This document shows positions 10,117-39,460 of a stretch of 64,000 nt of DNA, one piece after another. Every line of letters starts with the position of its first letter. Positions within the stretch are counted from its first letter, which is position 1. The stretch comes from Acidimicrobiales bacterium (GTDB taxonomy: Bacteria > Actinomycetota > Acidimicrobiia > Acidimicrobiales > GCA-2861595). A program made the translations under genes and the position numbers. The notes under the pieces are model-generated. The model was not told the origin of the DNA and searched no databases. It was given only the letters and a program-made list of their open reading frames with translations. The stretch spans positions 7,865-71,864 of the forward strand of contig DATLOM010000018.1 of assembly GCA_035536185.1 (NCBI GenBank), written 5' to 3'.

Positions 10117-10128
10117 CAATCGACGTAT

Positions 10129-11043: not shown

Positions 11044-11108
11044 GGGCGGCGGCGAGGCAAGTCTCGGTACTCGAGACCGCTGCCGCGCAGAACTGTGCCG
11101 GTCTCGGT

Positions 11109-20937: not shown

Positions 20938-21534
20938 GTGGCGAATGCTCGCGCTGCGGGAGCTGGCATATGCGGCGCCACGATCTGGTTGACGGGGCTC
21001 CCCGCCTCGGGCAAGTCCACCATCGCCTCGGAGGCGGAGCGCCGGCTCCTGGAACGGGGCGTGGCCACGATCGTGCTCGATGGCGACGACCTGCGCCACG
21101 GCCTCAACCGGGACCTGGGGTTCAGCCCGGGGGACCGGCGGGAGAACGTCCGGCGTATAACCGAGGTGGCCCGGCTGTTTGCCCGGGCCGGGATCGTCGC
21201 CCTCGTCCCGGTGATCAGCCCCTACGCCGCCGGGCGGGCACGCTCCCGAGCGGTCCACGACGACGCCGGGCTCGCGTTCGCCGAGGTGTTCGTCCGCACT
21301 CCCCTGGCTGAGTGCGAGCGCCGGGACCCCAAGGGCCTCTACGCCCGCGCCCGGCGGGGTGAGGTGGCTGACTTCACCGGGGTGCACGACCCCTACGAGG
21401 TGCCGGAGCGGCCCGACCTGGAGGTTGCCACCATGGAACTATCGGTGGGGGAGGCCGGGGAGCTGGTGGTCGAGTTGGTGGCCGACCTCACCGGCCGGCA
21501 GCTCACCGCCGCCGGGTGGGACGACCACTCATGA
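20938..21534 (+). CDS. cysC: Adenylylsulfate (APS) kinase
   Basis: Has the P-loop WLTGLPASGKSTIA, plus VLDGDDLRHGLNRDLGFSPGDRRENVRRITEVA, VPVISPY, RDPKGLYARARRGE and FTGVHDPYE. It is stand-alone, not fused to CysN. Confidence 0.92.
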   Translation: MANARAAGAGICGATIWLTGLPASGKSTIASEAERRLLERGVATIVLDGDDLRHGLNRDLGFSPGDRRENVRRITEVARLFARAGIVALVPVISPYAAGRARSRAVHDDAGLAFAEVFVRTPLAECERRDPKGLYARARRGEVADFTGVHDPYEVPERPDLEVATMELSVGEAGELVVELVADLTGRQLTAAGWDDHS

Positions 21535-23747
21535 GCTGCCCTGCAGGCCAACTCCCCCATCACGGGCAAGCCGGCGGGCACCTTCGGTCCGAGGCGGGCC
21601 TTCATGCACATCGACCCAGGGGGCGCTGGGTGCCGCGCCTCCGGCTGGCGGCAGCAGCTTGCGTCCTGCTGGCCGGGCTGGGCGGCGCGGCGCCGGCCGG
21701 TGCCGCGGGCGACCTGGAGCTCCAGTTCCTCGACACCCGGCCGATCGTCGTGGACCTGGACGCCCTCGAAGACGAGGAGGCCCGGTGGCGAGTGGGTGTC
21801 TTCAACGGCCAGCCCGGCGGCCCCCAGCGGCTCAGCATGCACGTGGTCTTTGACCCGGTCGACGTCATCGTGGTCGAGGACGAGCCGGACGATCCTGTGC
21901 CCACCGGAACGACGGCGTCGTTCGTCATCGCCCTCGACGAGGAGCTGGCCGGCTCGGGTGAGCTGGTCGTCACGAGCGACAGCGGCGCCGCCGCTCGACG
22001 CCCGATAAGCGTCAGAAGGTCCGGCGAGGACGGCATCCCTGTGGGCGCCCTCCGCTTCTCGGGCACCAGGAGCCATCCGTTCGGCGGCGGGATACGGGTG
22101 CCGGCGCTGGAGGTGCCCGGCGCCCCCGGCGGGTCGAGCGACAGCGTTTCCATAGGGAGCGTCGTCTCCGGCTCCGGCGATGTCGCCCATCTCGTCCGCA
22201 GGGACGACGTGTTCGAAGTGGACGGCGTCGCCGGCACGGGCGAGTACACCGGCACTGCGGACCTCACGCCCGGCGCCGACGGTGGCGAGGCCGAGGTCAG
22301 CCTCACCGTGCGGGATGCCGCCGGCTGGCCACTGGCCCTCCTGTTGCTCGGTCTGGGGGCGGTGCAGGGTCTCGAGCGCTACCAGAAGCGCGTGCGTCCC
22401 CGGCGGGAGCTGGCGCTGCGGCTGGCCCATCTGAAGGACCGTGCCCGCCTCGCGCAGAAGGGCGCGAGCGGCCCGCTGCTCATCTGCGGGGAAGCCGACG
22501 AGGCCGAGCTCGTGCTCGACGTGGAGGCTGCCCGTGCCCTCGAGGCCTGGGACCGGGCCCGGACAGAGGCGGAGAGGTCGGTGTGGGACTTCGGCGGCGC
22601 GTCCTTCGCCCGGCTGTCTGCGGCGGTCGAGGACTTCGCAAGGCTGACCCATGAGCACGCCGACCTCGAGTCCCGCCGCCAGCGCGTCATCGCCCGTTGC
22701 CTGGAGGGCGACCGCGAGGCTGCGGAGCGGGCCCTCGACGGTTCTCCGGTGGGCGAGGCGCTGCGGCCCCGCCGTTTCACCCACATCGCGCACATCGCCG
22801 CCGCGGCCGAAGAGCTAGAAGCCGCCGCGGCCCACCTCGACCGCTTCGCCGTGCTCTACGAGCAACTGGGCCAGCTCGCCCGGTTCGGGGACGACGGGGT
22901 GCAGATGGGCGCGGCGGTCCTCCGGAGCAAGCTGTTGACGCCGGGAGTCGACCTGGACCCCTTGGAGGAGGAGGTCGAGGAGCTGCTCAAGGCGTGGAGG
23001 CCGGCGCCGACCAGGGTGGAGCAGCCGGCCGCTGCTGCCCGGGGGATGTCGCTTCCTTCCCCGCCCCCGGTCTCGGCCCCGTCAGCCGCGCCGGCACCCA
23101 CCCCCATCGAAGCGGCCCGAGCGAGGCGGGAGGCACGTCAGCGGCGCCGCGCCCTACCTCTGGCAGCAGGGTCCTTCGCCGCTCTGCTGGCGATCCTGTT
23201 GGCGGTGTCGTTGATCGGTGAAGAGGCCCAGGGCCCCGATAGGGGCCCTCGTGGCGGTGACGGTCCCCCGAGCACCGTCTTCAGCCCCGCCCCCGGAGGA
23301 GGCGACGGCACGGCGGGACCGCCGGGCCAGCCGGACGAGCTGCCCGACGCCCCTGTGAGCGCGCCGGCCACGCCGCCGCGACCAGCCGCTCCCACCGGCG
23401 ACGACGGCACCGGCACCAACGTCGTGGTCCCGGGCTTCCTGGTGCCCCTCGCCCTCGTGGTCGCGGTGCTCGGGGGTGTGCTGCTCGTGCTGCGGGCGCT
23501 GCGCCGACGGCGGCGGGCGGAAGACCTGGACAGCGCCCGCCTCGACAGGCTCCTGGCCTCCGAGGACCGGCGCTTCGCCCTGGCCAGCGGCCTTTTCGTG
23601 GTCGCCACCGGGATGTCGTTGCTCTACGTCCCGAACCCCACCTTCGGCGGCCCCGGCGACTACCTCACCGTCGTCCTCTGGGGTGCCGGGGTGGGCGAGG
23701 GGATCCAGCTCGTGCGCCGCATCCTGCCCGGCGTGCCGGGGCGCTGA
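21531..23747 (+). CDS. Large hypothetical multi-domain membrane protein (Pro/Ala-rich linkers)
   Basis: Its ATG overlaps the cysC stop (ATGA). It has a signal-like segment LRLAAAACVLLAGLGGAAPAGAAG and TM segments (WPLALLLLGLGAV, LAAGSFAALLAILLAVSLI, FLVPLALVVAVLGGVLLVL, FALASGLFVVATGMSLLY). There is a helical Glu/Arg/Ala-rich central region. No family recognised. Confidence 0.6.
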   Translation: MSCPAGQLPHHGQAGGHLRSEAGLHAHRPRGRWVPRLRLAAAACVLLAGLGGAAPAGAAGDLELQFLDTRPIVVDLDALEDEEARWRVGVFNGQPGGPQRLSMHVVFDPVDVIVVEDEPDDPVPTGTTASFVIALDEELAGSGELVVTSDSGAAARRPISVRRSGEDGIPVGALRFSGTRSHPFGGGIRVPALEVPGAPGGSSDSVSIGSVVSGSGDVAHLVRRDDVFEVDGVAGTGEYTGTADLTPGADGGEAEVSLTVRDAAGWPLALLLLGLGAVQGLERYQKRVRPRRELALRLAHLKDRARLAQKGASGPLLICGEADEAELVLDVEAARALEAWDRARTEAERSVWDFGGASFARLSAAVEDFARLTHEHADLESRRQRVIARCLEGDREAAERALDGSPVGEALRPRRFTHIAHIAAAAEELEAAAAHLDRFAVLYEQLGQLARFGDDGVQMGAAVLRSKLLTPGVDLDPLEEEVEELLKAWRPAPTRVEQPAAAARGMSLPSPPPVSAPSAAPAPTPIEAARARREARQRRRALPLAAGSFAALLAILLAVSLIGEEAQGPDRGPRGGDGPPSTVFSPAPGGGDGTAGPPGQPDELPDAPVSAPATPPRPAAPTGDDGTGTNVVVPGFLVPLALVVAVLGGVLLVLRALRRRRRAEDLDSARLDRLLASEDRRFALASGLFVVATGMSLLYVPNPTFGGPGDYLTVVLWGAGVGEGIQLVRRILPGVPGR

Positions 23748-23765: not shown

Positions 23766-26258
23766 TTGACGGCCTGTGCCGGGCGCGGCCATGGTGACGG
23801 GGTGACGGGAAGAACGGGGGCCGCAAGGGCCACAGGAACCGACACCCACTTCGACGTCGTCGTGGTGGGCTCCGGGTTCGGTGGCTCGGTGACGGCCTAC
23901 CGGCTGGCCGAGGCCGGCCTTCGCGTGTGCGTGCTGGAGCGGGGAAAGGCCTACCCCCCGGGGTCGTTCCCCCGCAGCCCCCGGGAGATGAAGGACAACT
24001 TCTGGGACCCGAGCGAGGGCAGGCACGGGCTGTTCAACGCCTGGTCGTTCCGCGGCCTCGAGGCGCTGGTGTCCGCCGGCCTCGGCGGTGGTTCGCTCAT
24101 CTACGCCAACGTGCTGCTCCGCAAGGACGAGAAGTGGTTCGTCCAGCGAAACCCGCACGGGCCGGGTTACGAGGAGTGGCCCATCACCCGGGCCGACCTC
24201 GACCCCCACTACGACGTGGTGGAGCGGATGCTCGCCCCGCAGCGCTTCCCGCTGGGGGCTCCCGGGTTCGAGCTGGCCAAGACGCGGGCCATGCAGGAGG
24301 CGGCGCAACGGCTGGGCCTGGAGTGGCAGCTGCCGAACCTGGCCATCACCTTCGCCAACGAGGCCGCACCACCTGCGATCGGCCAGCACATACCGGACGG
24401 CGACTACCCGAACCTGCACGGCCAGAGCCGCGTCACGTGCCGGCTCACCGGCGAGTGCGACCTGGGATGCAACAACGGCAGCAAGAACACGCTCGACCAC
24501 AACTACCTCTCAGCGGCCAAGCATCACGGTGCCGACATCAGGACCCGCTGCGAGGTGCGCAGCTTCGAGCCCCGCAACGGCGGTGGTTACTCGGTGAGCT
24601 ATGTCGAGCACCGTCCTGAGAACGAGGGACGCAAGGGGAAGAGCGGCCAACTCTCCCCCGTCACCCTCACCGCCGGGCGCCTGGTGCTGTCCGCAGGGTC
24701 CCTCGGCAGCACCTTCCTCCTCCTGCGCAACCGCAGCGCCTTCCCCGGCATCAGCCCTGCTCTCGGCTCCCGCTTCTGCGGTAACGGCGACCTCCTCGCC
24801 TTCATGCTGCGCAGTCGCACCCGCGACACCAAGAGAGGGCCGAGGGTGCTGGACGGCAGCAGGGGGCCGGTCATCACCAGCACCATCCGGGTCCCCGACG
24901 AGGTCGATATGGACGGGGATGTGGACGGGAACGGGGGCGGCCGCGGCTACTACGTGCAGGACGCCGGCTTCCCCGGCTTCGTGGACTGGATGCTCGAAGG
25001 GACACAGGCGCCGAGCACGGTGCACCGCCTCGCCCGCTTCGCCCTGCGCCGGCTGTGGGCCATGGTGACTCACAACCCCAAGAGCGATCTGAGCGGTGAG
25101 CTGGCCGCCCTGGTGGGCGACGGCCAGCTCTCGTCGGGCTCCCTGCCGCTGCTCGGGATGGGCCGGGACGTGCCCGACGGGCGCATGTCCCTGCGCAAGG
25201 GCTACCTGGACCTGGACTGGACCATCGACACGTCCAAGGAGTACTTCGACCGGGTGGCCGACACCATGAGGGCCATCTCGGACGAACTGGGGGCCAGCTT
25301 TCACATCAACCCGCTGTGGCGGCTGAAGCGGGTCATCACCGTTCACCCGCTGGGCGGCTCCCCCATGGGCCGCCACCACGGCGACGGGGTGGTCGACACC
25401 TATGGCGAGGTCTTCGGCTACCCCGGTCTGCACGTGGCCGACGGGTCGGTGATGCCCGGCCCGGTGGGGCCCAACCCGGCGCTGACGATCGCCGCCTTCG
25501 CCAACCGCATGTCCGACGCCATCCTGGAGGGCCGAACCAGCTCGCCGCCGCCGTCGTCACCGTCACCATCACCATCGCCGGTCCCGGCGCCGGCGCCGGG
25601 ACCGCCGTCGGACCCTGAGAGCACCCCGCCGACGGCGATCGAGTTCACGGAGGAGATGAAGGGGTACGTCACCTTCGGGGAGGACGACTTCCACCGTGGC
25701 TTCGAACAGGGCCGCCGGAACGACAACTTCCTCATGTTCCACCTCACCATCGAGACCGACGACGTGGAGCGGTTCGTGGCCGACCCCGCCCACCTGGCCG
25801 ACGCACGGGGATGGGTGGAGTGCGAGGCACTGGGCGGACGGCTCCCGGTTGAGCGGGGTGTCTTCAACTTGTTCGTGGAGACGTCCGACCCCGATCGCAC
25901 CAACATGCTGTACCGCCTCTTCTTCGCCGACGGCGCCGGCCACCCGCTCACCTTCGTGGGCTTCAAGGACGTAAAAGACGACCGGGGCCTCGACCTCTGG
26001 CGGGACACCACCACGCTGTTCACCCGCGTCCTGCGCGGCCACGTGGAGCCCGGGCACGACGGGGACGCCGAGGTGGTCGCCTCCGGGATCATCACCATCC
26101 ACCTTCTCGACTTCCTGGAGCAGCTCACCACCTTCCGCGCCCACGGGCCGAGCACGTCGGCCCGGGCCGAAGCCTTGGGCGACTTCGGCCGGCTCTTCCT
26201 CGGCAAGCTGTGGGACACCTATGCCGGCGCCGTCCTCGACGCCGCCGGGGCCCGCTGA
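23766..26258 (+). CDS. GMC-family FAD oxidoreductase (cholesterol-oxidase-like) with an extra C-terminal ~200-aa domain
   Basis: Has the FAD fingerprint HFDVVVVGSGFGGSVTAYRLAEAGLRVCVLERG and the C-terminal GMC block HPLGGSPMG...GLHVADGSVMPGPVGPNPALTIAA. A Pro/Ser linker then leads to the domain AIEFTEEMKGY...LWRDTTTLFTRV. The track start is TTG; GTG at 23802 is an alternative. Confidence 0.85.
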   Translation: MTACAGRGHGDGVTGRTGAARATGTDTHFDVVVVGSGFGGSVTAYRLAEAGLRVCVLERGKAYPPGSFPRSPREMKDNFWDPSEGRHGLFNAWSFRGLEALVSAGLGGGSLIYANVLLRKDEKWFVQRNPHGPGYEEWPITRADLDPHYDVVERMLAPQRFPLGAPGFELAKTRAMQEAAQRLGLEWQLPNLAITFANEAAPPAIGQHIPDGDYPNLHGQSRVTCRLTGECDLGCNNGSKNTLDHNYLSAAKHHGADIRTRCEVRSFEPRNGGGYSVSYVEHRPENEGRKGKSGQLSPVTLTAGRLVLSAGSLGSTFLLLRNRSAFPGISPALGSRFCGNGDLLAFMLRSRTRDTKRGPRVLDGSRGPVITSTIRVPDEVDMDGDVDGNGGGRGYYVQDAGFPGFVDWMLEGTQAPSTVHRLARFALRRLWAMVTHNPKSDLSGELAALVGDGQLSSGSLPLLGMGRDVPDGRMSLRKGYLDLDWTIDTSKEYFDRVADTMRAISDELGASFHINPLWRLKRVITVHPLGGSPMGRHHGDGVVDTYGEVFGYPGLHVADGSVMPGPVGPNPALTIAAFANRMSDAILEGRTSSPPPSSPSPSPSPVPAPAPGPPSDPESTPPTAIEFTEEMKGYVTFGEDDFHRGFEQGRRNDNFLMFHLTIETDDVERFVADPAHLADARGWVECEALGGRLPVERGVFNLFVETSDPDRTNMLYRLFFADGAGHPLTFVGFKDVKDDRGLDLWRDTTTLFTRVLRGHVEPGHDGDAEVVASGIITIHLLDFLEQLTTFRAHGPSTSARAEALGDFGRLFLGKLWDTYAGAVLDAAGAR

Positions 26259-26262
26259 CCAC

Positions 26263-28005
26263 ATGACCGACCCCTCGCCGCGTCCGGAGAGCGACCAGCC
26301 CGATCAGGTCGGGTTCACCCCCCAGTCGATGGTCCGCTGGCTGTCGCCCACCGAGCTGGCCCGGGCCGCCGTCCGGGTCGGGCTCTCGGCCATCTTCGGG
26401 GCCTACTCCGACAAACGGGAGATCCAGGCCGCCCTGCGGGAGTGCGTCTGCTTCGACTACAGCGACCGGAGCGAGCTGTGGGTCGACTTCGTGGCCGACC
26501 TGGGCGACGGGTTCGACTCGACCTACACCGTGGCCAGCCTGCTCGCCGCCGAGAAGCTCGACCTCGGTCCATCCAGCGGCGCGACCACGCCCACTCCGCG
26601 GGGCAAGGTGCTCATCATGGGCGGCGACCAGGTGTACCCGACCGCGTCGCGGGAGGCGTACGAGGACCGCATGCAAGGCCCCTATCGAGCGGCCCTGCCG
26701 TACACCAGGGACGACCACCCCAACCTGTTCGCCATCCCGGGCAACCACGACTGGTACGACGGCCTCACCTCGTTCATCCGCGTCTTCTGCCAGCAGCACT
26801 GGTTGGGCGGATGGTGCACACGCCAGACACGCAGCTACTTCGCGCTGCAGCTCCCCCATCGGTGGTGGCTGCTGGGCATCGACATGCAGTTCGACGCCTA
26901 CATCGACGACCCCCAGCTCCGGTTCTTCACCGAGGAGGTTCGCCCGAACCTGCGGCCCGGTGACGCGGTGATCCTCTGCACGGGACAGCCGAACTGGGTG
27001 GCGGCGAATGTGAAGGACCCCGAGGCCTTCCGCAACCTCGACTACTTCGAGCGCAAGGTGATACCCGAGGGCGTGCAACTACGCGTCAGCCTCAGCGGCG
27101 ACACCCACCATTACGCCCACTACGCCAGCGAGGACGGCACCCGCCACGCTTTCACAGCCGGCGGCGGCGGCGCCTACCTGGCCGCCACCCACCGCCTGCC
27201 GACCCGCTTGGAGGTCCCGCCCAGGCACTCCAAGGACCCGGGGAGATCGTCGCCTCGCCAGTACGGCCTCGTCTCCACCTTCCCCGACCGCGCCCGCTCG
27301 CGCCGGCTGCGCTGGGGCGTCGTGCGGCTTCCCCTGCTCAACCCGGGCTTCTGGGCCCTGCTCGGCGCCGTACACGTTCTCTACGGCTGGATGGTCCATG
27401 GCGCGGTGCGGGTCCCCGGTCAGCCCTTCGACGCCGTCATGGCCGGCCTGTCGTTCAACGAGACGCTCGCCGGGGTGGGGCGCAGCCCGCTGGCCCTGCT
27501 CCTGAGCGTTCTGGTGGCAGCCGGCCTGGCCGGCTTCACCAAGGCCACCAGACCGGCCAAGAGGTGGCTCGTGGGCCTGACCCATGCCGCCGCCCACCTC
27601 CTACTCGTCGTCGCCGTGCTGAGGGCCTCCAGCGCCCTGCTGGGGCCTGTGCACGGAGAGGCTTTCGTCGTGGCCTTCGTCGCCGTGGTGGCCGTCGCCG
27701 GCGGCCTGCTGGCGAGCCTGCTCATGGCGGGTTACCTGATCGTGGCCGACGCCCTCGGCTGCAACACCAACGAACTGTTCGCGGCCCAGCGCATAGAGGA
27801 CTGGAAGAACTTCCTGCGCCTGCACGTGGACGAGTCCGGGACCCTCACCATCTACCCCGTCGGTGTCGAGAGGGCGGGCCGGGGGTGGAAGTTCCGCCGG
27901 GATGCCGGCGGTGAGGGCGCGTGGTTCCACGCCGATCCGCCACCCAAGGCGGCGCTCATCGAAGCGCCCGTGGTAGTGGGCACCGCCGGTTCCTGCCCAG
28001 CCTGA
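26263..28005 (+). CDS. Calcineurin-like metallophosphoesterase with a C-terminal multi-TM region
   Basis: Has the blocks LIMGGDQVYP, FAIPGNHDWYDGL and SGDTHHYAHY. C-terminal hydrophobic segments include FWALLGAVHVLYGWMV, LALLLSVLVAAGLAGF and HLLLVVAVL. ATG 26263 lies just after the previous stop. Confidence 0.8.
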   Translation: MTDPSPRPESDQPDQVGFTPQSMVRWLSPTELARAAVRVGLSAIFGAYSDKREIQAALRECVCFDYSDRSELWVDFVADLGDGFDSTYTVASLLAAEKLDLGPSSGATTPTPRGKVLIMGGDQVYPTASREAYEDRMQGPYRAALPYTRDDHPNLFAIPGNHDWYDGLTSFIRVFCQQHWLGGWCTRQTRSYFALQLPHRWWLLGIDMQFDAYIDDPQLRFFTEEVRPNLRPGDAVILCTGQPNWVAANVKDPEAFRNLDYFERKVIPEGVQLRVSLSGDTHHYAHYASEDGTRHAFTAGGGGAYLAATHRLPTRLEVPPRHSKDPGRSSPRQYGLVSTFPDRARSRRLRWGVVRLPLLNPGFWALLGAVHVLYGWMVHGAVRVPGQPFDAVMAGLSFNETLAGVGRSPLALLLSVLVAAGLAGFTKATRPAKRWLVGLTHAAAHLLLVVAVLRASSALLGPVHGEAFVVAFVAVVAVAGGLLASLLMAGYLIVADALGCNTNELFAAQRIEDWKNFLRLHVDESGTLTIYPVGVERAGRGWKFRRDAGGEGAWFHADPPPKAALIEAPVVVGTAGSCPA

Positions 28006-28018
28006 ACGGCGAGAGGCC

Positions 28019-29437
28019 TCAGCGGTCCCGGAGAAAACCCACCATGAGGTTCGCCGCCCGCGCCCGGTCGCGCAGGTCGTGGGCGCCCGATGGTTCGAAG
28101 GCCACAACGGCGCGAATGGCGTCCCGGCACCCGATCCTCCCGGAACCGTGCTCGCCCACGGGAGCCCCGCGCGACGGCCGCACGGCGAGTGACACCCGAG
28201 ACGCGTCCCGCCACCGCCCGCGGCCACGCCGGAGGGACCAGCCCAGCTCGAACACCGGTTCATCCTCTTCGACCCGCACCGCGGCCGAGACGGAGAACCG
28301 CTTCACGCCGTCGCCATCGTTGCCGACGCGGAGAGTCGCGTCGACGAAAGGCCGGTAGCCCCACCTCGGGTGGTCGATGCCTCCCACCACTGAAGCCGTG
28401 GCCACCGGGTCGTGGGCGAAGCGGCCGATGTCGGTGACCTCCACCACGAATGACACCGTCACAGCCTCGGGTGGAAGGTCCTGGTCCAGTGGCACCTTCC
28501 CCTGCATCCGGAGCACGACGCGCGCGCCGAGGGGCGGCACCGCCATCCTGGTGGCCGTTCCGTCCAGTGCGGTCCCTTCCTCGGTGCGGGCCCGGACGTA
28601 GCGCCAGGCGTCGCGGTAGCCCATGGCCACGAGGGTCTCGGCGGTGATGCGGCCGGTCACGAAGTCAGGGTCCAGGGGGAGGGGCAGATCGGGCTTGACG
28701 ACGTGCACGACGGCCTCTTCGGTGGAGCCGAACACCGCCTCCCCGCGCCGGCGCCGTTCGTTGATGTCGGCAATCTGCTCGAGCTCGCCGATCAGCGCAG
28801 AGTTGGCGCTCAGTTCGATCATGTGGACGTATTGCTCGAGCGGCCCGTTGCCCCAGTAGGGCGTGTTGCCGATGCACCACAGCAACCAGAGCTCGTTGCA
28901 CCCGCGTCGTACGGCCTCCATCAGGTTGGCGTCCTTGATCCACACCGCATCGGTCCAGGTGCGACCGCGAGCCGGTACGGCCGGCAGGAAGATCGGGAGC
29001 GACACGCCGGCCACCAGGCGGTCGATGTCGATGTCGTCGTTCGGGATGGCCACGCAGGTCTTGGCGTCGAAGTCGGCCACGTTGAAGGTCCCCGTCATGG
29101 CGGTCGCCGACCGGATCCTGTCCACTTCGATGCCGAGGTGAGGCAGCACGTGGTCGGTGATCCCCGAGGCGCTGCCGAAGGCAGGCCAGCTCGTCGGGAG
29201 CCGTAGGTACTGGCGCAGAGGCAGGAACGACACGAACCGGCGGACCGGCAGGCTGCGCCACCTGTCGCCGAGCGCCGCCGGCTCTACCCCGGACAGCAGC
29301 ATCCCGAGGGTGAAGATGCCACCCGACGTCCCGTCGCCGTGGTCGAACCGCAGCCCGGCCTCGTCCAGGGCCTGGACTGCCCCCGCCTGCCAGGCCACCC
29401 GGATCCCGCCGCCGGCCAGGATCAGCGCCCGCTTCAC
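28019..29437 (-). CDS. Patatin-like phospholipase with a C-terminal ~180-aa domain
   Basis: Has the oxyanion loop ILAGGGIRVAWQAG, the nucleophile GTSGG and a catalytic Asp region WTDAVW. The C-terminal domain reads VSFVVEVTDIGRFAHDP...RWRDASRVSLAV. Confidence 0.85.
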   Translation of the reverse strand: MKRALILAGGGIRVAWQAGAVQALDEAGLRFDHGDGTSGGIFTLGMLLSGVEPAALGDRWRSLPVRRFVSFLPLRQYLRLPTSWPAFGSASGITDHVLPHLGIEVDRIRSATAMTGTFNVADFDAKTCVAIPNDDIDIDRLVAGVSLPIFLPAVPARGRTWTDAVWIKDANLMEAVRRGCNELWLLWCIGNTPYWGNGPLEQYVHMIELSANSALIGELEQIADINERRRRGEAVFGSTEEAVVHVVKPDLPLPLDPDFVTGRITAETLVAMGYRDAWRYVRARTEEGTALDGTATRMAVPPLGARVVLRMQGKVPLDQDLPPEAVTVSFVVEVTDIGRFAHDPVATASVVGGIDHPRWGYRPFVDATLRVGNDGDGVKRFSVSAAVRVEEDEPVFELGWSLRRGRGRWRDASRVSLAVRPSRGAPVGEHGSGRIGCRDAIRAVVAFEPSGAHDLRDRARAANLMVGFLRDR

Positions 29438-29468
29438 GAGAGCTCCCGCCCCTGCGACGACTTCCGGC

Positions 29469-29897
29469 TCAACGGCGGCGCATGATGCGCAGGAGCAGGG
29501 CGGCGGAGGCCGCGTCGACCGCGGCGACGGCCCACGCCTGCTTCCCCAGCCGCCGGGAGAGGATGCCGCCGCTCAGCATGGCCGCAGCACCCGTCTTCGC
29601 CGCCAGCGCCCACCGCAAGCCGACCGCCGGCGGCTCGGGAGCCCGGCACACCTCGACCATCTGGCCACCGGAGACGGCCATGAACATGCCGATGACCCGG
29701 AAGAAGAACGGAGCCGGGTCGGTGCGGCCGGCGCCGAGAAGGCGTAGGGCGAGACGGGGCATGACCATCAAGGCCAGGCCCGACGCCGCCGTCCCCGCGC
29801 CCACGGCAACGGCCAGCCCGAACGTGCGGCCTCCACCGGATGGTTCAACCGGCCCGGCACCGCCACCGGCACCGGCGCCGGCGGCCGACGCCGTCAT
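29469..29897 (-). CDS. Small hypothetical membrane protein
   Basis: Its ATG at 29897 overlaps the stop of the upstream ADC-family gene (ATGA). Hydrophobic segments are FGLAVAVGAGTAASGLALMVM, FFFRVIGMFMAVSGG and WAVAAVDAASAALLL. Confidence 0.55.
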   Translation of the reverse strand: MTASAAGAGAGGGAGPVEPSGGGRTFGLAVAVGAGTAASGLALMVMPRLALRLLGAGRTDPAPFFFRVIGMFMAVSGGQMVEVCRAPEPPAVGLRWALAAKTGAAAMLSGGILSRRLGKQAWAVAAVDAASAALLLRIMRRR

Positions 29898-30838
29898 CGG
29901 TCCCCTCCCGGGACGCGGCCTGAGCTGGTGGGCGGGGGGAGCCATTCCTCCGAGCGAGGAAGCCCGATGACGCTCTCCAGCCCTTCGGGCGGGTTGTCCG
30001 GGTCCGGCGGGTCCTCCGAGGTGATGAACCACGCTTCCAAGTGGTCGTCGAGCACCCCGGCGGAGTGCGGGAGGCAAGCGGTGAAGAGCGGCCTGGTCCC
30101 GATCCCGAGTGTGCGCAGGGGGTCCATCCGCGGGTGGTCGCCGAGGAGGATCTCGGCCTTGGCGAACGGGGCCACAGCGCCCTGGACCTTGTCGGAGACG
30201 TAGATCGACGACTTCATCAGCATCCCTCTGAAGGCGCACCAGTTGACGGCGCCCACGTGCTTCAGCGGGACCTTGGGGCCCCTCGGCCGCTGGACCGTGA
30301 CCCGCATGCAGAGCCGACCGTCGAGGTCGTACTGGCTCGACATCGAACGGTCGTCGACCTGGAAGTCGAGACTGGCCTGGTGCTTGGGCATCCCCCAGAT
30401 CCCCTTACCGCCCTTGACCGACACCAGCGAGCTGACCGGGAGGTCCCAGACGTACTGCCCCGTGCCGTTGCTACGCATACGCACCAGCGCCGAGAGCAAC
30501 GAGGCAGGCCGCGGCCCGTGGGTGCACGCGAGGGCGATGCTGTACTCGATGTACCGGCCGATGTCGGTGGTGCGGTAGTCGATGACGGTGACGACGAGCA
30601 GGCCCCGCCGGTTCGGGAGCCGTATGGCGTGAACCTCGTTGCCGGGCAGCAACGCCTGAGCGGCGTCCCCGTCGACGGTGAAGGCGGTCATGAGGGCCGG
30701 CGAATCCTCGGAGTTGACCGGCAGCGAGAAGGGGATCCCGTCGACCAGCGCATGGCGGCCCCATTGGCGTTCCTGGCGGCGAGGAAGGCTCACGATTCGG
30801 GACGATACTCTCGCGGCCGCGGATGTGGGAGGGTGCAC
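29894..30838 (-). CDS. Acetoacetate decarboxylase (ADC)-family protein
   Basis: Reads LLVVTVIDYRTTDIGRYIEYSIALA...QYVWDLPVSSLVSVKGGKGIWGMPKH, which resembles the ADC beta-cone family. The start is uncertain; the N-terminal ~20 codons may be an extension. Confidence 0.65.
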   Translation of the reverse strand: MHPPTSAAARVSSRIVSLPRRQERQWGRHALVDGIPFSLPVNSEDSPALMTAFTVDGDAAQALLPGNEVHAIRLPNRRGLLVVTVIDYRTTDIGRYIEYSIALACTHGPRPASLLSALVRMRSNGTGQYVWDLPVSSLVSVKGGKGIWGMPKHQASLDFQVDDRSMSSQYDLDGRLCMRVTVQRPRGPKVPLKHVGAVNWCAFRGMLMKSSIYVSDKVQGAVAPFAKAEILLGDHPRMDPLRTLGIGTRPLFTACLPHSAGVLDDHLEAWFITSEDPPDPDNPPEGLESVIGLPRSEEWLPPPTSSGRVPGGDR

Positions 30839-30870
30839 GCGTCGAAGCGTTGACGACGAAGGAGAGCGGC

Positions 30871-31350
30871 ATGAGGCAGACCCTTTTGACCATCAACCAC
30901 GTCTGGTACTTCGCCGGCGCCACCTTCTACGTAGGGGTCCTCACCACGCTCCGGCTCTTCCTGTACCCGAGTTGGAACGCCATCCGGCCCGACACGACCC
31001 GCGACCACTTCACAGCTCCCACCGAGGCCGCCACCAAGGTGTTCCTCGTAGCCATTCCGACCTGGATGTTCACCGGCATCGTCATGATCGCCACGGAGTG
31101 GGGCGAGCCGTTGTTGTGGACGGCGGTGCTCGCCTTCCTCGGCCTGCTGACCACCACGTGTGTCGGCTGGTTCGGCATCCAGCCGATCAACCGGGAGATC
31201 AAAGCCGGCGTGCGCGACGGGGCCCGGCTGACCGAGCTGCTGGTCAGGTGGATGAAGATAAACGACCTGAGGTTGGCCGCCGTCCTCGTCATGTGGGGAG
31301 CGTTGTGCTGGTACTTCGTCGCCAAGGGCGACCTGCCTGCCGCGCTCTGA
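30871..31350 (+). CDS. DUF1772 (anthrone-oxygenase-like) membrane protein
   Basis: ATG is preceded by AAGGAGAG. It has four hydrophobic segments and the block GWFGIQPINREI...WMKINDLRLAAVLVMWGALCWYF, typical of DUF1772. Confidence 0.65.
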   Translation: MRQTLLTINHVWYFAGATFYVGVLTTLRLFLYPSWNAIRPDTTRDHFTAPTEAATKVFLVAIPTWMFTGIVMIATEWGEPLLWTAVLAFLGLLTTTCVGWFGIQPINREIKAGVRDGARLTELLVRWMKINDLRLAAVLVMWGALCWYFVAKGDLPAAL

Positions 31351-32390
31351 TGGCGACGCCTCGTCACCAGGAAGAGACCTTCTCTTTCGCCACAGCAGAC
31401 GGCCGAACGGCCAACGTGGTCCACGTCGTCGGTGAACGTCCGGCCGTCAAGGGGCCGGTGCTGCTCGTCCACGGAGCGGGCGTGCGATCCAACATCTTCC
31501 GGGCGCCGGTGACGACCAACCTCGTCGACGACCTCATCGACCACGGGTGGGACGTCTGGCTGGAGAACTGGCGGGCCAGCACCGACTTCGAGCCTTCGGA
31601 GTGGACCCTCGACCAGGCCGCCGTCCACGACCATCCGGGGGCGGTCGACACCGTCGTCGAGCAGACGGGCGCCGACACGGTGAAGGCGGTGATCCACTGC
31701 CAGGGCTCGACCAGCTTCATGATGGCGTCCGTCGCGGGGCTGCTCCCCAGGGTGGACACCGTCGTGTCCAACGCCGTCGCCCTCCACCCGGTCGTGCCCC
31801 CCCTCGCCAACTGGAAGCTCCGGCTCAGCACGCCGGTCGTGCGTCGGCTCACCCGCTACCTCGATCCCCGCTGGGACGTCGACGACGCGCCGGCGTTGGT
31901 GGGCCGCCTCATCGCGCTGTGGGTGCGCCTGGTCCATCACGAATGCGACAACCAGGTCTGCAAGATGGTCAGCTTCACCTACGGAGCCGGCAGCCCGACG
32001 CTGTGGTCCCACGCCAACCTCAACGACGAGACCCACGAGTGGTTGCGGGGTGAGTTCGGCCACGTCCCACTGTCGTTCTTCCGCCAGATCGCCCGCTCTG
32101 TCCGTGCGGGTCACCTGGTGTCGGTGGAGGGAATGCGTGAGCTACCCGAGAGCTTTGTCGCCCAACCACCACAGACCGATGCCCGCTTCGCGTTCCTCTC
32201 GGGAGCGCGGAACGTCTGCTTCACGCCCGAAGGGCAACAGCGGACGTTCGAGTTCTTCGAAGAGCACGACCCCGGGCGCCACAGCATCCGCATCCTGCCG
32301 GGCTACGGCCACCTCGACGTCTTCATGGGCCACCGGGCGGCCCGAGACGTCTTCCCGCTCATCCGCGAGGAGCTCGACCGGGCTGGTTGA
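31350..32390 (+). CDS. Alpha/beta hydrolase
   Basis: Its start overlaps the previous stop (TGATG). Reads GPVLLVHGAGVRSNIF, has the nucleophile region VIHCQGSTSFMMA, and a late GYGHLDVFMG (His). Only the part of track ORF 30678-32390 from 31350 onward is coding. Confidence 0.75.
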   Translation: MATPRHQEETFSFATADGRTANVVHVVGERPAVKGPVLLVHGAGVRSNIFRAPVTTNLVDDLIDHGWDVWLENWRASTDFEPSEWTLDQAAVHDHPGAVDTVVEQTGADTVKAVIHCQGSTSFMMASVAGLLPRVDTVVSNAVALHPVVPPLANWKLRLSTPVVRRLTRYLDPRWDVDDAPALVGRLIALWVRLVHHECDNQVCKMVSFTYGAGSPTLWSHANLNDETHEWLRGEFGHVPLSFFRQIARSVRAGHLVSVEGMRELPESFVAQPPQTDARFAFLSGARNVCFTPEGQQRTFEFFEEHDPGRHSIRILPGYGHLDVFMGHRAARDVFPLIREELDRAG

Positions 32391-36048: not shown

Positions 36049-36330
36049 TCAGCGGACCACCTCCAGCTGTGGGCGGACGGTGGCGCCGGCGCTGCGACCG
36101 ACCTCCGGCAGGGATGCCGGGGGCACGACCGGCTCGCGTCGCCAGCTCCAGGTCCGCGTGCCGGCGAACATCGCCGTCGCCCAGCCATCGGCCTCCTCGG
36201 CCGAGGCGAAGGGGCCCACCATCCCCTGATATGCGCCGGCCTTGGTCAGCACCAGGACCCATTCGGCGGCAACCGGCTGCTCGCCCACCATGCCGTTCGT
36301 GCTCGTCGCCATGCCCGGAAGGTACGCCAC
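36049..36330 (-). CDS. Small hypothetical protein
   Basis: Reads ...MATSTNGMVGEQPVAAEWVLVLTKAGAYQGMVGPFASAEEADGWATAMFAGTRTWSWRREPVVPP. Decent GC3. Divergent from the addB-like gene. No family recognised. Confidence 0.4.
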   Translation of the reverse strand: MAYLPGMATSTNGMVGEQPVAAEWVLVLTKAGAYQGMVGPFASAEEADGWATAMFAGTRTWSWRREPVVPPASLPEVGRSAGATVRPQLEVVR

Positions 36331-36391
36331 CGCTGTGACAGAAACGGGGATTCCGCCTTCCTGTCACAGCCCTCCTGTACAACTGCCTGTG

Positions 36392-39300
36392 ATGCCTTTG
36401 GTCACAAGCGCCCCCGCTGGGCCCGCCGCCCGCACCGCTCTCCGCGAGCGGATCGGCGCAGCCAAGGCCGGCGACCCCTTGGCACCGGTCACCGTCGCCG
36501 TTCCCTCGCCCTACGCCGGCCTGTCCCTGCGCCGCCATCTTGGCTCGCAGCCCGGGGGCCTGGTGAACGTCGCCTTCATCCCACTGGCCCGGGTCGCCGA
36601 GCTGCTGGGCGCCCCCTCACTGGCCGCCGCCCGCCGTCGCCCGCTCGCCGCCGCCGTCCGGCGGGAGGCCCTTCGGGTCCTGCTCGGCGAGAGCGCCGGC
36701 TTGTTCGGCCCGATCGCCGGCCATGCCACCACCATCCGGGCCCTCGACCGCACGCTGGTAGAGCTCCGGGCCTGTTCAGCGGAGTCCCTGGAGCGCCTCG
36801 CGCAAGCCGGCCCCCGCGCCGCTGAGGTCGTCGACCTCCACCGCTCACTGCGGGCCCGGCTCGAAGCCGGCTGGTACGACGAGCACGATCTCGCGGCCGC
36901 CGCCGCCCGCGCCATCCGCGACGGCAGCCCGGTCCTCGCCGATCTCGGCCATGTCATCGTCTTCTGCCCCCGCCGCCTCGCTCCGTCCGCCACCGGCCTC
37001 CTCGATGCCCTCGGCGACTCCGCTACCGTCATCGAGGCCGGCCACGAAGCCGCGCCGCCGGTCGGCAGCGCCATCGTGGGCTGCGCCGATCCCGACGAGG
37101 AGGTGCGGGCCGCAGTGCGTGGGGTGGCGGACCGCCTCGCCCGGCCCGAGCCCACGCCCCTTCACCGCATGGCGATCCTCTACCCGTCCGGTGGCCCATA
37201 CGCCACCATCGCCCACCAGCAGCTGGCCGCCGCCGGCATCCCCCACAACGGGCCGGCCGGCCGCACCCTCGCCCTCACCGTCGCCGGCCGGGCCCTTCTC
37301 GGGCTGCTCGACCTCGGTGCCGGCGAAGTCGGCCGGAACGAACTCGCCACGTGGTTGGCGTCGGCGCCCATCCTCGAGCGAGCCGATGGCCCAGAGCTGG
37401 CGCCCGGCGCGCGCTGGGACACCCTTTCCCGGCGCGCTGGTGTGGTAGCCGGCGCGGGCCACTGGAAGGAGCGGCTCGACAGCCTGGTGGCCGACCTTCA
37501 CCAGCAAGCCGACCTCTCGCACCGCCTCGAGGCGGAAAGCGGCGAAGACGATCCCAAGGCCGAGCAACGGCGGCAGCGCCTCGAGCGGGACATCGCATCG
37601 GTGGAACGGCTCCACCTGTTCGTGGAGGAGCTCCACGCCGCCATCGACCCTGGCCGGCGCACCACCTGGGCCGCCATGTCGACCTGGGCCGCGGGCCTGC
37701 TCGACCGCTATCTCGGCGGCCCGCTCCATCATCGTCACTGGCCGGAGGAGGAGCAGGAGGCGTGGCAAGACGTCCACCTGGTACTCGACAGCCTCGCCAA
37801 TCTCGACGCCATGGGAGGCGCCGTCGATCTGGCGGCCTTCCGCCACGCGGTGGCGTTGGAGCTGGAGGTGCAGGCAGAACGCGAAGGCACCTTCGGTGAC
37901 GGGGTCTTCGTGGGACCGGTGGGTGCCGCCTGGGCCACAGACTTCGACACTGTCTTCCTCCTCGGTCTCGCCGAAGGCAGCCTCCCCCGGCTGGGCCGCC
38001 AGGACGCCCTCCTGCCCGACGCCGAGCGGGCCATGGCCGGCGAGCTGGCCCGGCGGGCCGAGCGCCAGAGCGACGAGCACGCTGAGTACCTCGCGGCGCT
38101 GGCCAGTGCGCCCGAACGGCTCCTTCTCTGGCCGAGAACCGATCTGCGGGACGGGCGGCAGCGCCTGCCTTCGCGCTGGCTGCTCCACACGGCTTCTCAC
38201 CTGGCCGGGTGGCCCATCTTCAGCAGTGACCTGGCCGCCCTCGCCGGGGGTGGTGGCGGCGGGGGTGGCGAGGCCGTGCACGACGTGGCGTCGTTCGAGG
38301 CCGGCATGGGCCACGGCCGCGAGCCGGGCTCCCTGCTGGACCACGACCTGGCCAGCCTGCTCGAGTGGAGAGCGGCCGGCGGCGAGGCCACGCGCCACCA
38401 TCTCGTCGCTGCCAACCCGGCACTGGCCGCCGGTATGGCCGCCACGGCCGGGCGCGAAAGCGCCGAGCTCACCCGCTTCGACGGCAATGTGCCCGCCGGC
38501 GCCACCGACGCCCTCGCTGCCGGCGCAGTGCTGTCGGCCACCAGCCTGCAGACCTACGCCCAGTGCCCACTGAGGTACTTCCTCACCAAGCAACTGGGCC
38601 TGGCCGCGGAGGAGAAGCCCGAGGACCTGGTGACCATCGGGGCAATGCAGAGAGGCACCCTGGTGCACGCCATCCTCGAGGACTACGTGGTGTCGCTGCT
38701 GGAGGGCCAGCCCCGGTCGCTGGATCGCCTGCTGGAGATGGCCGAGTCCCGCTTCGCCGAGGCCGAGTCCCGGGGGCTCACCGGCCGGCCGGTTCTGTGG
38801 CGCTACGAGCGCCAGAAGATGGTGCGCGAGCTCGAGCGCATCCATGTGCTCGATGTGGACATGACGCCGCTGGCGGCAGAGCTCCCCTTCGGTGACCACG
38901 GCCACGAGCCGGTCACCCTCACCCTCCCCGACGGCCGCACGATCGGCTTCCGGGGCAGGGCCGACCGCGTCGACCGGGACAAGACCGGCGCCCTGGTGGT
39001 CACCGACTACAAGACCGGGGGCTCGGAGGGGTACAAGGCCATGGAGACAGATCCCGTCGACCGGGGCACGAAGCTCCAGTTGCCGCTCTACGCCATGGCC
39101 GCCCGTCAGCGGTTCCCCGAGGTGGGCGCGGGCCAGCCCCTGCGCTCCCGCTACTGGATCATCTCAGAGAAGGGCGGCTTCAAGGAGTTCCCCATCGAGC
39201 TGACCGACAGGGTGACGGAGCGTTTCCGCCAGGTGCTCGGGGTGATCGTCGACGGCATCACCGCCGGCAACTTCCCCGCCCGCCCCGGAAAGCCGGGGTG

Positions 39301-39460
39301 GAAGACGCCCGAGAACTGCCGGTGGTGCGACATGGGTTCGCTCTGCCAGCAGGACCGGGAGAGGCAGTGGGAGCGCAAGAAGAACCAGCCCGGCCTTGCC
39401 GCCTACGTGGAGATGGCCGAGGGAGAAACGGCGAGCGGAGGAGACGCGGCCGGTGGCTGA
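36392..39460 (+). CDS. AddB-like helicase-nuclease subunit (PD-(D/E)XK nuclease with Fe-S Cys motif, no Walker A)
   Basis: The C-terminal nuclease block is GRADRVDRDKTGALVVTDYKTGG...LQLPLYAMAA. Cysteines are arranged YAQCPLRYF ... CRWCDMGSLC (1+3 pattern). No GxGKT motif is seen in the N-terminal region. Start at ATG 36392 (MPLVTSAP). Confidence 0.8.
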   Translation: MPLVTSAPAGPAARTALRERIGAAKAGDPLAPVTVAVPSPYAGLSLRRHLGSQPGGLVNVAFIPLARVAELLGAPSLAAARRRPLAAAVRREALRVLLGESAGLFGPIAGHATTIRALDRTLVELRACSAESLERLAQAGPRAAEVVDLHRSLRARLEAGWYDEHDLAAAAARAIRDGSPVLADLGHVIVFCPRRLAPSATGLLDALGDSATVIEAGHEAAPPVGSAIVGCADPDEEVRAAVRGVADRLARPEPTPLHRMAILYPSGGPYATIAHQQLAAAGIPHNGPAGRTLALTVAGRALLGLLDLGAGEVGRNELATWLASAPILERADGPELAPGARWDTLSRRAGVVAGAGHWKERLDSLVADLHQQADLSHRLEAESGEDDPKAEQRRQRLERDIASVERLHLFVEELHAAIDPGRRTTWAAMSTWAAGLLDRYLGGPLHHRHWPEEEQEAWQDVHLVLDSLANLDAMGGAVDLAAFRHAVALELEVQAEREGTFGDGVFVGPVGAAWATDFDTVFLLGLAEGSLPRLGRQDALLPDAERAMAGELARRAERQSDEHAEYLAALASAPERLLLWPRTDLRDGRQRLPSRWLLHTASHLAGWPIFSSDLAALAGGGGGGGGEAVHDVASFEAGMGHGREPGSLLDHDLASLLEWRAAGGEATRHHLVAANPALAAGMAATAGRESAELTRFDGNVPAGATDALAAGAVLSATSLQTYAQCPLRYFLTKQLGLAAEEKPEDLVTIGAMQRGTLVHAILEDYVVSLLEGQPRSLDRLLEMAESRFAEAESRGLTGRPVLWRYERQKMVRELERIHVLDVDMTPLAAELPFGDHGHEPVTLTLPDGRTIGFRGRADRVDRDKTGALVVTDYKTGGSEGYKAMETDPVDRGTKLQLPLYAMAARQRFPEVGAGQPLRSRYWIISEKGGFKEFPIELTDRVTERFRQVLGVIVDGITAGNFPARPGKPGWKTPENCRWCDMGSLCQQDRERQWERKKNQPGLAAYVEMAEGETASGGDAAGG

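Follow-up and report, generated by a model that had tools for sequence, protein, structure and literature searches.

A predicted beta-barrel domain shared by a GMC oxidoreductase and a patatin in a conserved seven-gene cluster of lipid-type enzymes

Cholesterol oxidases such as ChoA and ChoB (PDB structures 1B4V and 1COY) have a GMC fold that binds flavin adenine dinucleotide (FAD) and a catalytic His and Asn. Patatin-fold proteins such as PlpD, ExoU, VipD, and CapV/CapE have a Gly-rich oxyanion loop and a dyad formed by the GxSxG Ser and an Asp. Gastric and lysosomal acid lipases are alpha/beta-hydrolase-fold enzymes with a Ser nucleophile, and PhaC, a polyhydroxyalkanoate (PHA) synthase, uses a Cys nucleophile. 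The acetoacetate decarboxylase (ADC)-like superfamily includes ADC, Sbi00515, and MppR, and the calycin barrels include lipocalins, nitrophorin, and nitrobindin (Rv2717c). We analyzed a locus that brings relatives of several of these enzymes together, at positions 23766 to 32390 of a 64,000-nucleotide stretch of DNA (the window) from an Acidimicrobiales bacterium (assembly GCA_035536185.1, contig DATLOM010000018.1, positions 7,865 to 71,864). In this locus, a GMC oxidoreductase and a patatin carry the same domain of about 200 residues, and their genes belong to a conserved, self-contained system of seven genes found across at least four bacterial phyla.

A preliminary description of the region, made from the sequence alone, had aligned the C-terminal parts of the GMC oxidoreductase and the patatin by eye. 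We ran the two tests it had set, for C-terminal homology and for synteny, and both held, the former by HHalign and the latter in 80 loci from four phyla. The two window sequences by themselves show only a marginal similarity, which is not convincing: BLASTP of the full-length proteins gave an E value of 0.17, falling exactly on the first block of the by-eye alignment, and a Smith-Waterman alignment of the two C-terminal regions had a z-score of 2.5, its score being reached by 55 of 2,000 shuffles. The homology is decisive because profiles built from homologues match, with clean controls. HHalign comparison of the GMC C-terminal domain plus 120 homologues with the C-terminal regions of 118 patatin homologues gave a probability of 99.2% and an E value of 6.4e-20 over 169 aligned columns, and all three by-eye pairings (FLMFHLTIETDDVERFVADP with VSFVVEVTDIGRFAHDP, LWRDTTTLFTRV with RWRDASRVSLAV, and ASGIITIHLLDFLEQLTTF with GSGRIGCRDAIRAVVAF) lie inside the HHalign register. 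As controls, both domain profiles were compared with seven other cluster families, with E values of 0.05 to 0.85. A plain hidden Markov model (HMM) of patatin C termini matches the window GMC C terminus over its full length (75 bits), and intermediate sequences from loci with a single copy of the domain (the S-type described below) match both profiles at 100 to 170 bits.

Structural models agree with this result. We built AlphaFold models from separate alignments for the GMC domain alone and for the whole patatin, with predicted local distance difference test (pLDDT) and predicted template modeling (pTM) scores of 90 and 0.86 for the first and 93.5 and 0.94 for the second. The order of strands and helices is identical in the two models; they differ by an extra helix in the GMC copy, placed exactly at the alignment gap, and by one extra C-terminal helix. 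The GMC C terminus (216 amino acids [aa]) has 1,486 database homologues at 57 to 73% identity, many of them stand-alone proteins of ~210 aa. Patatin homologues are 25 to 40% identical to the window protein in their C termini, compared with 60 to 76% in their catalytic domains.

To place the locus among related genomes, we used a patatin-family profile, which recovered 195 confirmed loci from contigs representing one genome per species; the best 80 were examined with 10-kb flanks, and partner genes were located by tblastn with the window proteins. The ADC-family protein and the alpha/beta hydrolase were each present in 76 of the 80 loci, the barrel domain (with the GMC-type query) in 74, the GMC catalytic part in 73, the metallophosphoesterase in 64, the DUF1772-like protein in 62, and the small transmembrane protein in 61; where a partner is lacking, the locus mostly runs into the end of its contig. 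The loci belong to Actinomycetota (Acidimicrobiia, Nocardioides, Streptomyces, Kitasatospora, Arthrobacter, Cellulomonas, and Solirubrobacterales), Myxococcota (Corallococcus, Pyxidicoccus, Hyalangium, and Polyangium), Acidobacteriota (Geothrix and Holophagales), and Proteobacteria (Rhodocyclales, Woeseia, and Uliginosibacterium). In most genomes the cluster genes are all on one strand, and two orders are usual: GMC-domain, phosphoesterase, hydrolase, ADC, DUF1772-like, small transmembrane, patatin-domain; or hydrolase, ADC, DUF1772-like, small transmembrane, patatin-domain, GMC, phosphoesterase. Clustering of the leftover open reading frames (ORFs) of the 80 loci, among which regulators and transporters were sought, gave no further shared family beyond close relatives, and the genes that flank the cluster in the window do not recur in these loci.

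With homology between the C-terminal regions and synteny of the gene set across phyla established, the idea put forward in the preliminary description, that the genes form a linked lipid-type system of several steps that shares an accessory module, is well supported. The polyketide link that accompanied it is not, as the DUF1772/anthrone-oxygenase match is below threshold (see below). That description could not assign the genes to a known pathway, and we came to the same outcome: our search of the full-text literature on patatin with other cluster enzymes, and on patatin lipases of Myxococcus, found no published description of the cluster. A reading as a defense system was rejected; PADLOC gave only a 16.8-bit FAD-motif match among the cluster proteins.

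The shared domain is predicted to be an up-and-down beta-barrel followed by a helical hairpin, based on the AlphaFold models, in which ~10 mostly consecutive strands form the barrel and short helices precede a C-terminal hairpin. The C-terminal regions of the full-length window proteins had no Pfam match at E values up to 0.01, and with E values up to 10, Pfam gave nothing for 39 of 40 members of the GMC sequence type (G-type, below) scanned. The remaining member had one sub-threshold match, to GAP1-N2, which we took as chance. DUF3376, suggested earlier as a candidate, was detected in neither scan. NCBIfam likewise gave no match for the domain, and the PDB held no sequence relative, even by profile. 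Foldseek against the PDB found nothing significant for the barrel, with TM-scores of at most 0.35 overall. For the isolated domain, the best E value was 0.012 with TM-scores of ≤0.3, and GFP, PloI4, designed barrels, and MppR were among the weak matches; for the domain within the patatin model, nitrophorin, nitrobindin Rv2717c, and other small ligand-binding barrels matched weakly (E value of ~7e-3). We also considered the barrel as a diverged copy of the ADC-family protein or of another cluster protein, which we rejected on the HHalign comparisons with the seven families (E values of 0.05 to 0.85).

Hydropathy shows neither a hydrophobic nor an amphipathic membrane segment in the domain, and transmembrane or hydrophobic segments occur only in the phosphoesterase, the DUF1772-like protein, and the small transmembrane protein. 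Since the domain lacks such a segment and other subunits carry transmembrane helices, its earlier interpretation as a membrane-targeting module is not favored. In the databases, the Joint Genome Institute (JGI) names many stand-alone ~210-aa barrel proteins (P0003, P0010, P0012, and others) "cholesterol oxidase" despite their lack of an oxidase domain, and a patatin homologue (P0221) bears the name "phage tail tube protein FII"; both labels look like annotation carry-over errors.

The copies of the domain are not equivalent. We assigned sequence types across the 80 loci. The G-type, found in 45 loci, is carried by the GMC oxidoreductase or encoded by a separate gene right after it, and has the motifs FTEeMkG, G.FNLF, MlYRL, G.KdV.dDpG.DvW.DTstL, and Fg.lFlg.Lw.vY. 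The S-type is the sole copy in 29 loci, where it sits on the patatin and keeps the G-type motifs; its hosts are Myxococcota, Proteobacteria, Acidobacteriota, and some Actinomycetota metagenome-assembled genomes (MAGs), and the window GMC domain matches S-type patatin C termini directly, at 29 to 40% identity. The P-type is the second copy, on the patatin, in the 45 two-copy loci including the window; it is without the FTEEMKG, FNLF, and DT motifs, and a motif of its own, SFEPSGAH..DR.RA, distinguishes it. One consensus-type copy is present in all 45 two-copy and all 29 single-copy loci, and the other six of the 80 are contig-end fragments or have only the divergent copy in view. Polar positions conserved in both the G-type and the single-copy type are the Glu of FxExMxG, which lies on an otherwise hydrophobic strand face, the Asn of FNLF, the Tyr of M.Y.L.F, G.K, and D..W.DT. 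Computed over the same genome pairs, mean pairwise identity is 0.53 for the G-type barrel and 0.40 for the P-type, compared with 0.66 for the patatin catalytic domain, 0.63 for the GMC catalytic part, 0.67 for the hydrolase, and 0.64 for the ADC-family protein. The patatin copy in the window is thus a fast-evolving, motif-poor, degenerate paralogue, and the GMC copy keeps the consensus. Such a degenerate second copy occurs in Actinomycetota, including the window, and the models predict that this P-type copy is packed rigidly against the patatin domain.

Fusions show that the domain is a mobile component of the system, attachable to the GMC oxidoreductase, the patatin, or the hydrolase. An exhaustive HMMER search found 2,191 members among 1.84 billion representatives (50% identity clusters). 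For the best 150 of these, architectures were assigned by BLASTP and checked with Pfam (counts by HMM differ by one to four per class): 99 consist of the domain alone, of which some may be fragments, 19 are patatin-domain proteins, 16 are GMC-domain proteins, 15 are domain-hydrolase proteins with a hydrolase of the same family as in the cluster, and one is a GMC-domain-hydrolase triple fusion of 1,189 aa. Counted as "domain alone" are one fusion to an SRPBCC (lipid-binding) domain and one domain-transmembrane protein, and one transmembrane-domain-hydrolase protein is counted as "domain-hydrolase." One further protein consists of a patatin and two tandem domains, and the GMC gene of the same genome has no domain. 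This tandem protein is encoded at 9564 to 11843 of locus L087 (GCA_035540335.1, DATLHE010000414.1), where the cluster adjoins a yceD-rpmF-fabH-fabG-accC fatty-acid synthesis locus; this adjacency was seen once and may be fortuitous.

Among the 80 loci, stop-free fusions join several cluster genes. The small transmembrane protein is fused to the N terminus of the patatin-domain protein in ten Myxococcota loci (L028, L033, L035, L060, L065, L069, L071 to L073, and L047), the ADC-family protein to the DUF1772-like protein in two Polyangium loci (L028 and L035), and the patatin-domain protein to the GMC oxidoreductase in L047 and L076. Conversely, the GMC gene is split at the linker in about 10 related loci. 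In four loci from long-read MFD MAGs (L001, L005, L019, and L057), the GMC, hydrolase, or phosphoesterase gene is spread over several ORFs in different frames; these are probably assembly frameshifts and were therefore not counted as split genes.

Each of the four domain-hydrolase fusions examined is immediately preceded by a GMC gene that belongs to the same family and has no domain, and there was no patatin, ADC, or DUF1772-like gene near these four. Because the fusions follow domain-less GMC genes in every case, we regard GMC, domain, and hydrolase as the minimal module and the seven-gene cluster as its extended form. One such minimal module (L082, 2415 to 9689) is surrounded by genes for an FAD_binding_4 flavoprotein, a 458-aa metallophosphoesterase that is only marginally related to that of the cluster, and a short-chain dehydrogenase, which may be an alternative set of accessory enzymes. 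Since the copies are non-equivalent and 29 loci have a single copy, the domain is best seen as one attachable component and not as a targeting tag for each enzyme.

Gene calls in the region were checked by third-position GC and Pfam. The window is ~70% G+C, and the calls yield seven genes (Table 1), not the "eight adjacent genes" announced earlier by a description that itself listed seven. On the plus strand, the metallophosphoesterase ATG lies 4 nucleotides downstream of the GMC stop codon, and the stop of the DUF1772-like gene and the start of the hydrolase gene do overlap as TGATG, as had been noted. The ATGA coupling described for the minus strand is real for the ADC stop and the small transmembrane start but does not extend to the patatin, whose GTG start is separated from the small transmembrane stop by a 31-nucleotide spacer. 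The arrangement in the window is a rearranged, three-unit version of the order usual elsewhere.

Table 1. Features of the seven-gene region, with positions in the window
Feature	Positions	Strand	Basis or remark
GMC oxidoreductase, 830 aa	23766..26258	+	Start TTG 23766 or GTG 23802
GMC flavin oxidoreductase catalytic part, cholesterol-oxidase-like	23766..25560	+	Pfam; no signal peptide
Pro/Ser-rich linker from GMC part to barrel domain	25530..25607	+	Translation SSPPPSSPSPSPSPVPAPAPGPPSDPES
Predicted barrel domain, G-type copy (consensus-keeping)	25608..26258	+	383 bits against family HMM
Metallophosphoesterase, 3 to 4 C-terminal transmembrane helices followed by a short soluble tail	26263..28005	+	Pfam, hydropathy
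Patatin, 472 aa	28019..29437	-	GTG start at 29437
Predicted barrel domain, P-type copy at the patatin C terminus, divergent paralogue	28019..28555	-	HHalign to G-type profile
Patatin-like acyl hydrolase catalytic domain	28556..29437	-	Pfam, motifs, Foldseek
Small membrane protein, 142 aa	29469..29897	-	Hydropathy
ADC-family protein	29894..30793	-	Pfam ADC; GTG 30793 is the likely start
DUF1772-like polytopic membrane protein	30871..31350	+	ATG 30871 after GAAGGAG; alternative ATG 30823
Alpha/beta-hydrolase-fold enzyme, 346 aa, Cys nucleophile (HCQGS)	31350..32390	+	Pfam Abhydrolase_1

The window flanks hold unrelated housekeeping genes, for an APS kinase, an M28 peptidase, a methyltransferase, and an AdnAB-like helicase-nuclease. 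The last of these corresponds to two large overlapping plus-strand genes at 36230 to 42776 that resemble an AdnA/AdnB-type pair, encoding a 1,076-aa PD-(D/E)XK nuclease protein and a 1,176-aa protein with UvrD-helicase and PD-(D/E)XK domains, and they are unrelated to the cluster. Immediately 5' of the cluster, at 21516 to 23747 on the plus strand, is a gene for a 743-aa protein with four hydropathy peaks. This protein has no Pfam family and a weak, sub-threshold match to SLATT (NCBIfam E value of 0.006), and it was not found beside the cluster in any of the 80 related loci.

The GMC, metallophosphoesterase, patatin, ADC, and alpha/beta hydrolase identities assigned in the preliminary description were confirmed by Pfam matches above the cut-offs, and the catalytic residues appear to be intact in all of the enzymes, judging from their motifs. 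The GMC oxidoreductase matches GMC_oxred_C (59.7 bits) and GMC_oxred_N (32.5 bits). Its closest solved structures are the cholesterol oxidases 1COY and 1B4V (E value of 1e-24), and its catalytic His (HPLGG) and Asn (G-x-NP; GPNP) align to those of 1COY. The patatin matches PF01734 with 63.6 bits (cut-off 27.7). A set of 55 homologues keeps its GGGxR oxyanion loop (GGGIR), Ser38 of GTSGG, and Asp163 without exception, and its fold matches PlpD, CapV, CapE, and patatin (Foldseek E values of 1e-11 to 1e-7). An Acidimicrobiales MAG encodes a patatin-like protein with 100% identity to that of the window.

The alpha/beta hydrolase matches Abhydrolase_1 (PF00561) with 29.8 bits (cut-off 25.8). Its nucleophile elbow, HCQGS, aligns to GHSQG of gastric and lysosomal acid lipase, with Cys in place of Ser in all 76 cluster homologues and HC-x-G in all domain-hydrolase fusions; a YGHLD motif is also conserved. 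A Cys nucleophile suggests that the enzyme works through a thioester or by transacylation, like PHA synthases and dienelactone hydrolases. Scores against the PHA synthase families of NCBIfam are far below the cut-offs (TIGR01836, 23.3 bits against 365; TIGR01838, 17.0 bits against 623). The 76 hydrolase homologues also have a strongly conserved Cys/His-rich insert, tH.EC.N.VC...SFtYG.G.P.LW.H.NL...TH.W, which may bind a metal or act as a redox-active lid.

The ADC-family protein matches PF06314 with 57.5 bits (cut-off 29.8), but only over model positions 20 to 140 of 238. Its motif SVKGGKGIWGMPKH is invariant in 76 to 77 of 77 homologues; all 77 have K116 of the PKH motif, and all members of a 14-sequence alignment have E62. 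The invariant G-K-G-x-x-x-x-P-K-H resembles the G-R-E-x-x-x-x-P-K-K that bears the Schiff-base Lys115 of clostridial ADC, so that K116 and E62 are putative counterparts of Lys115 and Glu76. An approximate clostridial ADC sequence gave no alignment to the ADC-family HMM. Neither the ADC-family protein nor the phosphoesterase had solved relatives by single sequence or profile. The metallophosphoesterase matches Metallophos (PF00149) with 27.0 bits (cut-off 21.5). Its GD, GGDxVYP, and PGNHDWYDG motifs are invariant in homologues (D79-G81-D82-G83, G120-G121-D122-V124-Y125, and G160-N161-H162-D163), and its hydropathy peaks are at residues 403 to 488.

The remaining two proteins are membrane proteins. 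The DUF1772-like protein, previously called DUF1772, has three hydropathy peaks, and its match to Anthrone_oxy (PF08592), at 19.6 bits, is below the cut-off of 27.3. Other members scanned gave 18 to 19 bits in two of five cases and nothing in three. The small transmembrane protein has no Pfam family.

Taken together, we propose that the region encodes a membrane-associated multi-enzyme complex acting on a lipid-like substrate, in which the barrel holds the substrate and/or docks the enzymes, a proposal with about an even chance of being correct. Its core would be the cholesterol-oxidase-like GMC flavoenzyme, the Cys-nucleophile alpha/beta-hydrolase-fold enzyme, and the barrel domain, which could hold a common hydrophobic substrate or intermediate, dock the soluble enzymes to one another, or both. 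The patatin, with its Ser/Asp dyad, and the Cys hydrolase would free or transfer an acyl group, exposing a hydroxyl; the GMC oxidoreductase would turn this alcohol into a carbonyl; and the ADC-family enzyme would act on the carbonyl, by Schiff-base-dependent decarboxylation of a beta-keto acid or by retro-aldol cleavage or elimination. The membrane-anchored metallophosphoesterase would strip a phosphate-linked head group. We infer a membrane-tethered complex because of the fusions of the small transmembrane protein to the patatin and of the ADC-family protein to the DUF1772-like protein; such fusions suggest that each membrane protein serves to anchor a particular soluble subunit. The small transmembrane protein, the DUF1772-like protein, and the transmembrane helices of the phosphoesterase would tether the complex to the membrane. 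In favor of a barrel-type fold are the weak Foldseek matches of lipocalin/nitrobindin type and the one SRPBCC lipid-binding fusion.

Several points weigh against this proposal. A lipid or hydrophobic ester as substrate is suggested by analogy at the family level, with patatin, acid-lipase-like hydrolases, and cholesterol-oxidase-like GMC enzymes, and the order of the reactions, although plausible, is tentative. The likeness of the barrel to calycin-type ligand binders may be resemblance only, because the Foldseek matches were not significant (best E values of 0.007 to 0.012, TM-scores of ≤0.35). The consensus-type domain is rich in conserved polar residues, which would also fit a catalytic role. 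Finally, the metallophosphoesterase, the DUF1772-like protein, and the small transmembrane protein are absent from 16 to 19 of the 80 loci, some of these absences being contig-end truncations.

The alternatives concern both the barrel and the pathway. Rather than carrying a substrate, the barrel could itself catalyze a reaction on the product of the GMC oxidoreductase, for example as an isomerase, hydratase, or cyclase; each system would then require one such enzyme, fused to any convenient neighbor. All 74 loci with a full-length copy do have one consensus-type copy, second copies lose the motifs, the polar positions are conserved in both the G-type and single-copy types, and the catalytic barrels PloI4 cyclase and MppR are among the weak fold matches. 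However, no catalytic family was matched, the conservation of the barrel (0.53) is below that of true enzymes in the same genomes (0.63 to 0.67), and its three fusion partners are equally typical of carrier or adaptor domains, so we consider a catalytic barrel rather unlikely. Unlikely too, and a little more so, is a pure docking or assembly module, or a peripheral membrane-binding one, that joins the GMC oxidoreductase, hydrolase, and patatin and has no ligand pocket. The variety of fusions and the split genes would fit such a role, as would the fixed interface implied by the pTM of 0.94 for the two-domain patatin model and the retention of the divergent patatin copy, which suggests a structural function. 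Against it, a 10-strand barrel of this size usually has a cavity, the barrel has no hydrophobic or amphipathic membrane segment, and the conservation of motifs between phyla exceeds what a simple adaptor usually needs. Least probable of all is chance as the source of both the domain similarity and the gene neighborhood. The weak pairwise comparison of the two window sequences is all that would recommend it, and it is practically excluded by the profile-profile E value of 6.4e-20 with clean controls, the single-copy intermediates that match both profiles at 100 to 170 bits, and synteny in 80 loci from four phyla.

For the pathway, one specific candidate is the turnover of esterified 3-hydroxyacyl lipids or polyesters (ornithine lipids, lipid-A-type acyl chains, or PHAs), in which the ester would be cleaved, the GMC oxidoreductase would oxidize the 3-hydroxyl to give a beta-keto acid, and the ADC-family enzyme would decarboxylate it. 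The chemistry, inferred from the established ADC and GMC mechanisms, is coherent, the ADC-family enzyme is kept beside the alcohol oxidase in 76 of 80 loci, and the hydrolase has a Cys nucleophile and a weak similarity to PHA synthases. Yet this route leaves the phosphoesterase without a role, the minimal module has neither ADC nor patatin, and the PHA-synthase matches are far under the cut-off (23 bits against 365); we judge it improbable. The use of sterols or steryl esters, in which the GMC protein would be a genuine cholesterol oxidase working with steryl esterases (the hydrolase and the patatin), seems more improbable still. Among solved structures and curated families, the GMC protein is closest to cholesterol oxidases, the hydrolase N terminus aligns to lysosomal acid lipase/cholesteryl ester hydrolase, and the JGI family label is "cholesterol oxidase." But the GMC protein scores 191.9 bits against the NCBIfam cholesterol-oxidase equivalog (NF058674), whose cut-off is 850, it has no secretion signal, and no steroid-ring degradation genes are nearby. 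A sterol pathway would also leave the ADC-family enzyme and the phosphoesterase unexplained, and the JGI label is also found on stand-alone barrel proteins that have no oxidase domain.

A bolder form of our proposal, which we offer as possible but doubtful, is that the barrel is a new family that serves as substrate carrier or catalytic center of an undescribed lipid pathway. This pathway would have a GMC alcohol oxidase and a Cys-nucleophile acyltransferase as its core and would be extended in the seven-gene form by the patatin, an ADC-fold Schiff-base enzyme, and the membrane phosphoesterase. In soil Actinomycetota, Myxococcota, Acidobacteriota, and Proteobacteria, it would build or break down a membrane lipid, perhaps with a 2-oxo or beta-keto compound as intermediate. 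Since each catalytic domain falls in a known superfamily, the system does not form a category of its own, but there appears to be no earlier description of the barrel family, of the Cys-type subfamily of hydrolases, or of the cluster taken as a unit. The barrel adds a domain family with thousands of members that lies outside Pfam, NCBIfam, and solved structures and is partly mislabeled in metagenome annotations. Its fusion to three enzymes of one conserved cluster, and to membrane segments, provides a ready hypothesis of physical association, and the presence of the system in Streptomyces, Nocardioides, Arthrobacter, Corallococcus, and Geothrix makes its function directly testable. Should the system prove to act on a membrane lipid, it may represent a new route of remodeling or catabolism in which the ADC fold and Cys-type alpha/beta hydrolases are put to new use. 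As an operon of lipid-type enzymes that share a new module, it is a solid and testable lead that overturns nothing.

Compared with the described systems, each component combines a recognizable relative with features of its own. ChoA and ChoB are the best curated match of the GMC oxidoreductase, which is similar to them by only ~90 bits, has no Tat or Sec signal, carries the barrel domain (its relatives carry or precede it), and sits in a seven-gene cluster. ChoD of Streptomyces lavendulae is a classical Tat-secreted enzyme of 547 aa in a different operon. The patatin domain shares the fold, oxyanion loop, and dyad of PlpD, ExoU, VipD, and CapV/CapE (Foldseek E values of 1e-11 to 1e-6), but the extra modules of those proteins (POTRA and outer-membrane barrel, helical membrane-localization, and Rab-binding) are unrelated to the window barrel, and the window cluster has no secretion or defense context. 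Like the calycins, the barrel domain is predicted to be a ~10-strand up-and-down barrel followed by helices, but it has no sequence similarity to them, its Foldseek matches to them are not significant (best E values of 7e-3 to 3e-2), and it has an extra helical hairpin; we treat it as a new family of calycin-like look and do not class it with the calycins. The hydrolase shares the alpha/beta-hydrolase fold with gastric and lysosomal acid lipases, with H-C-Q-G aligned to their elbow H-S-Q-G, but only its N-terminal half is similar to them (25 bits), the nucleophile is Cys and not Ser, and the enzyme has its own insert, H.EC.N.VC. The ADC-family protein joins the ADC-like superfamily by a Pfam match above the cut-off that covers half of the model, with no detectable sequence similarity to solved members, and unlike those members, the window-type protein goes with, and is sometimes fused to, a membrane protein.

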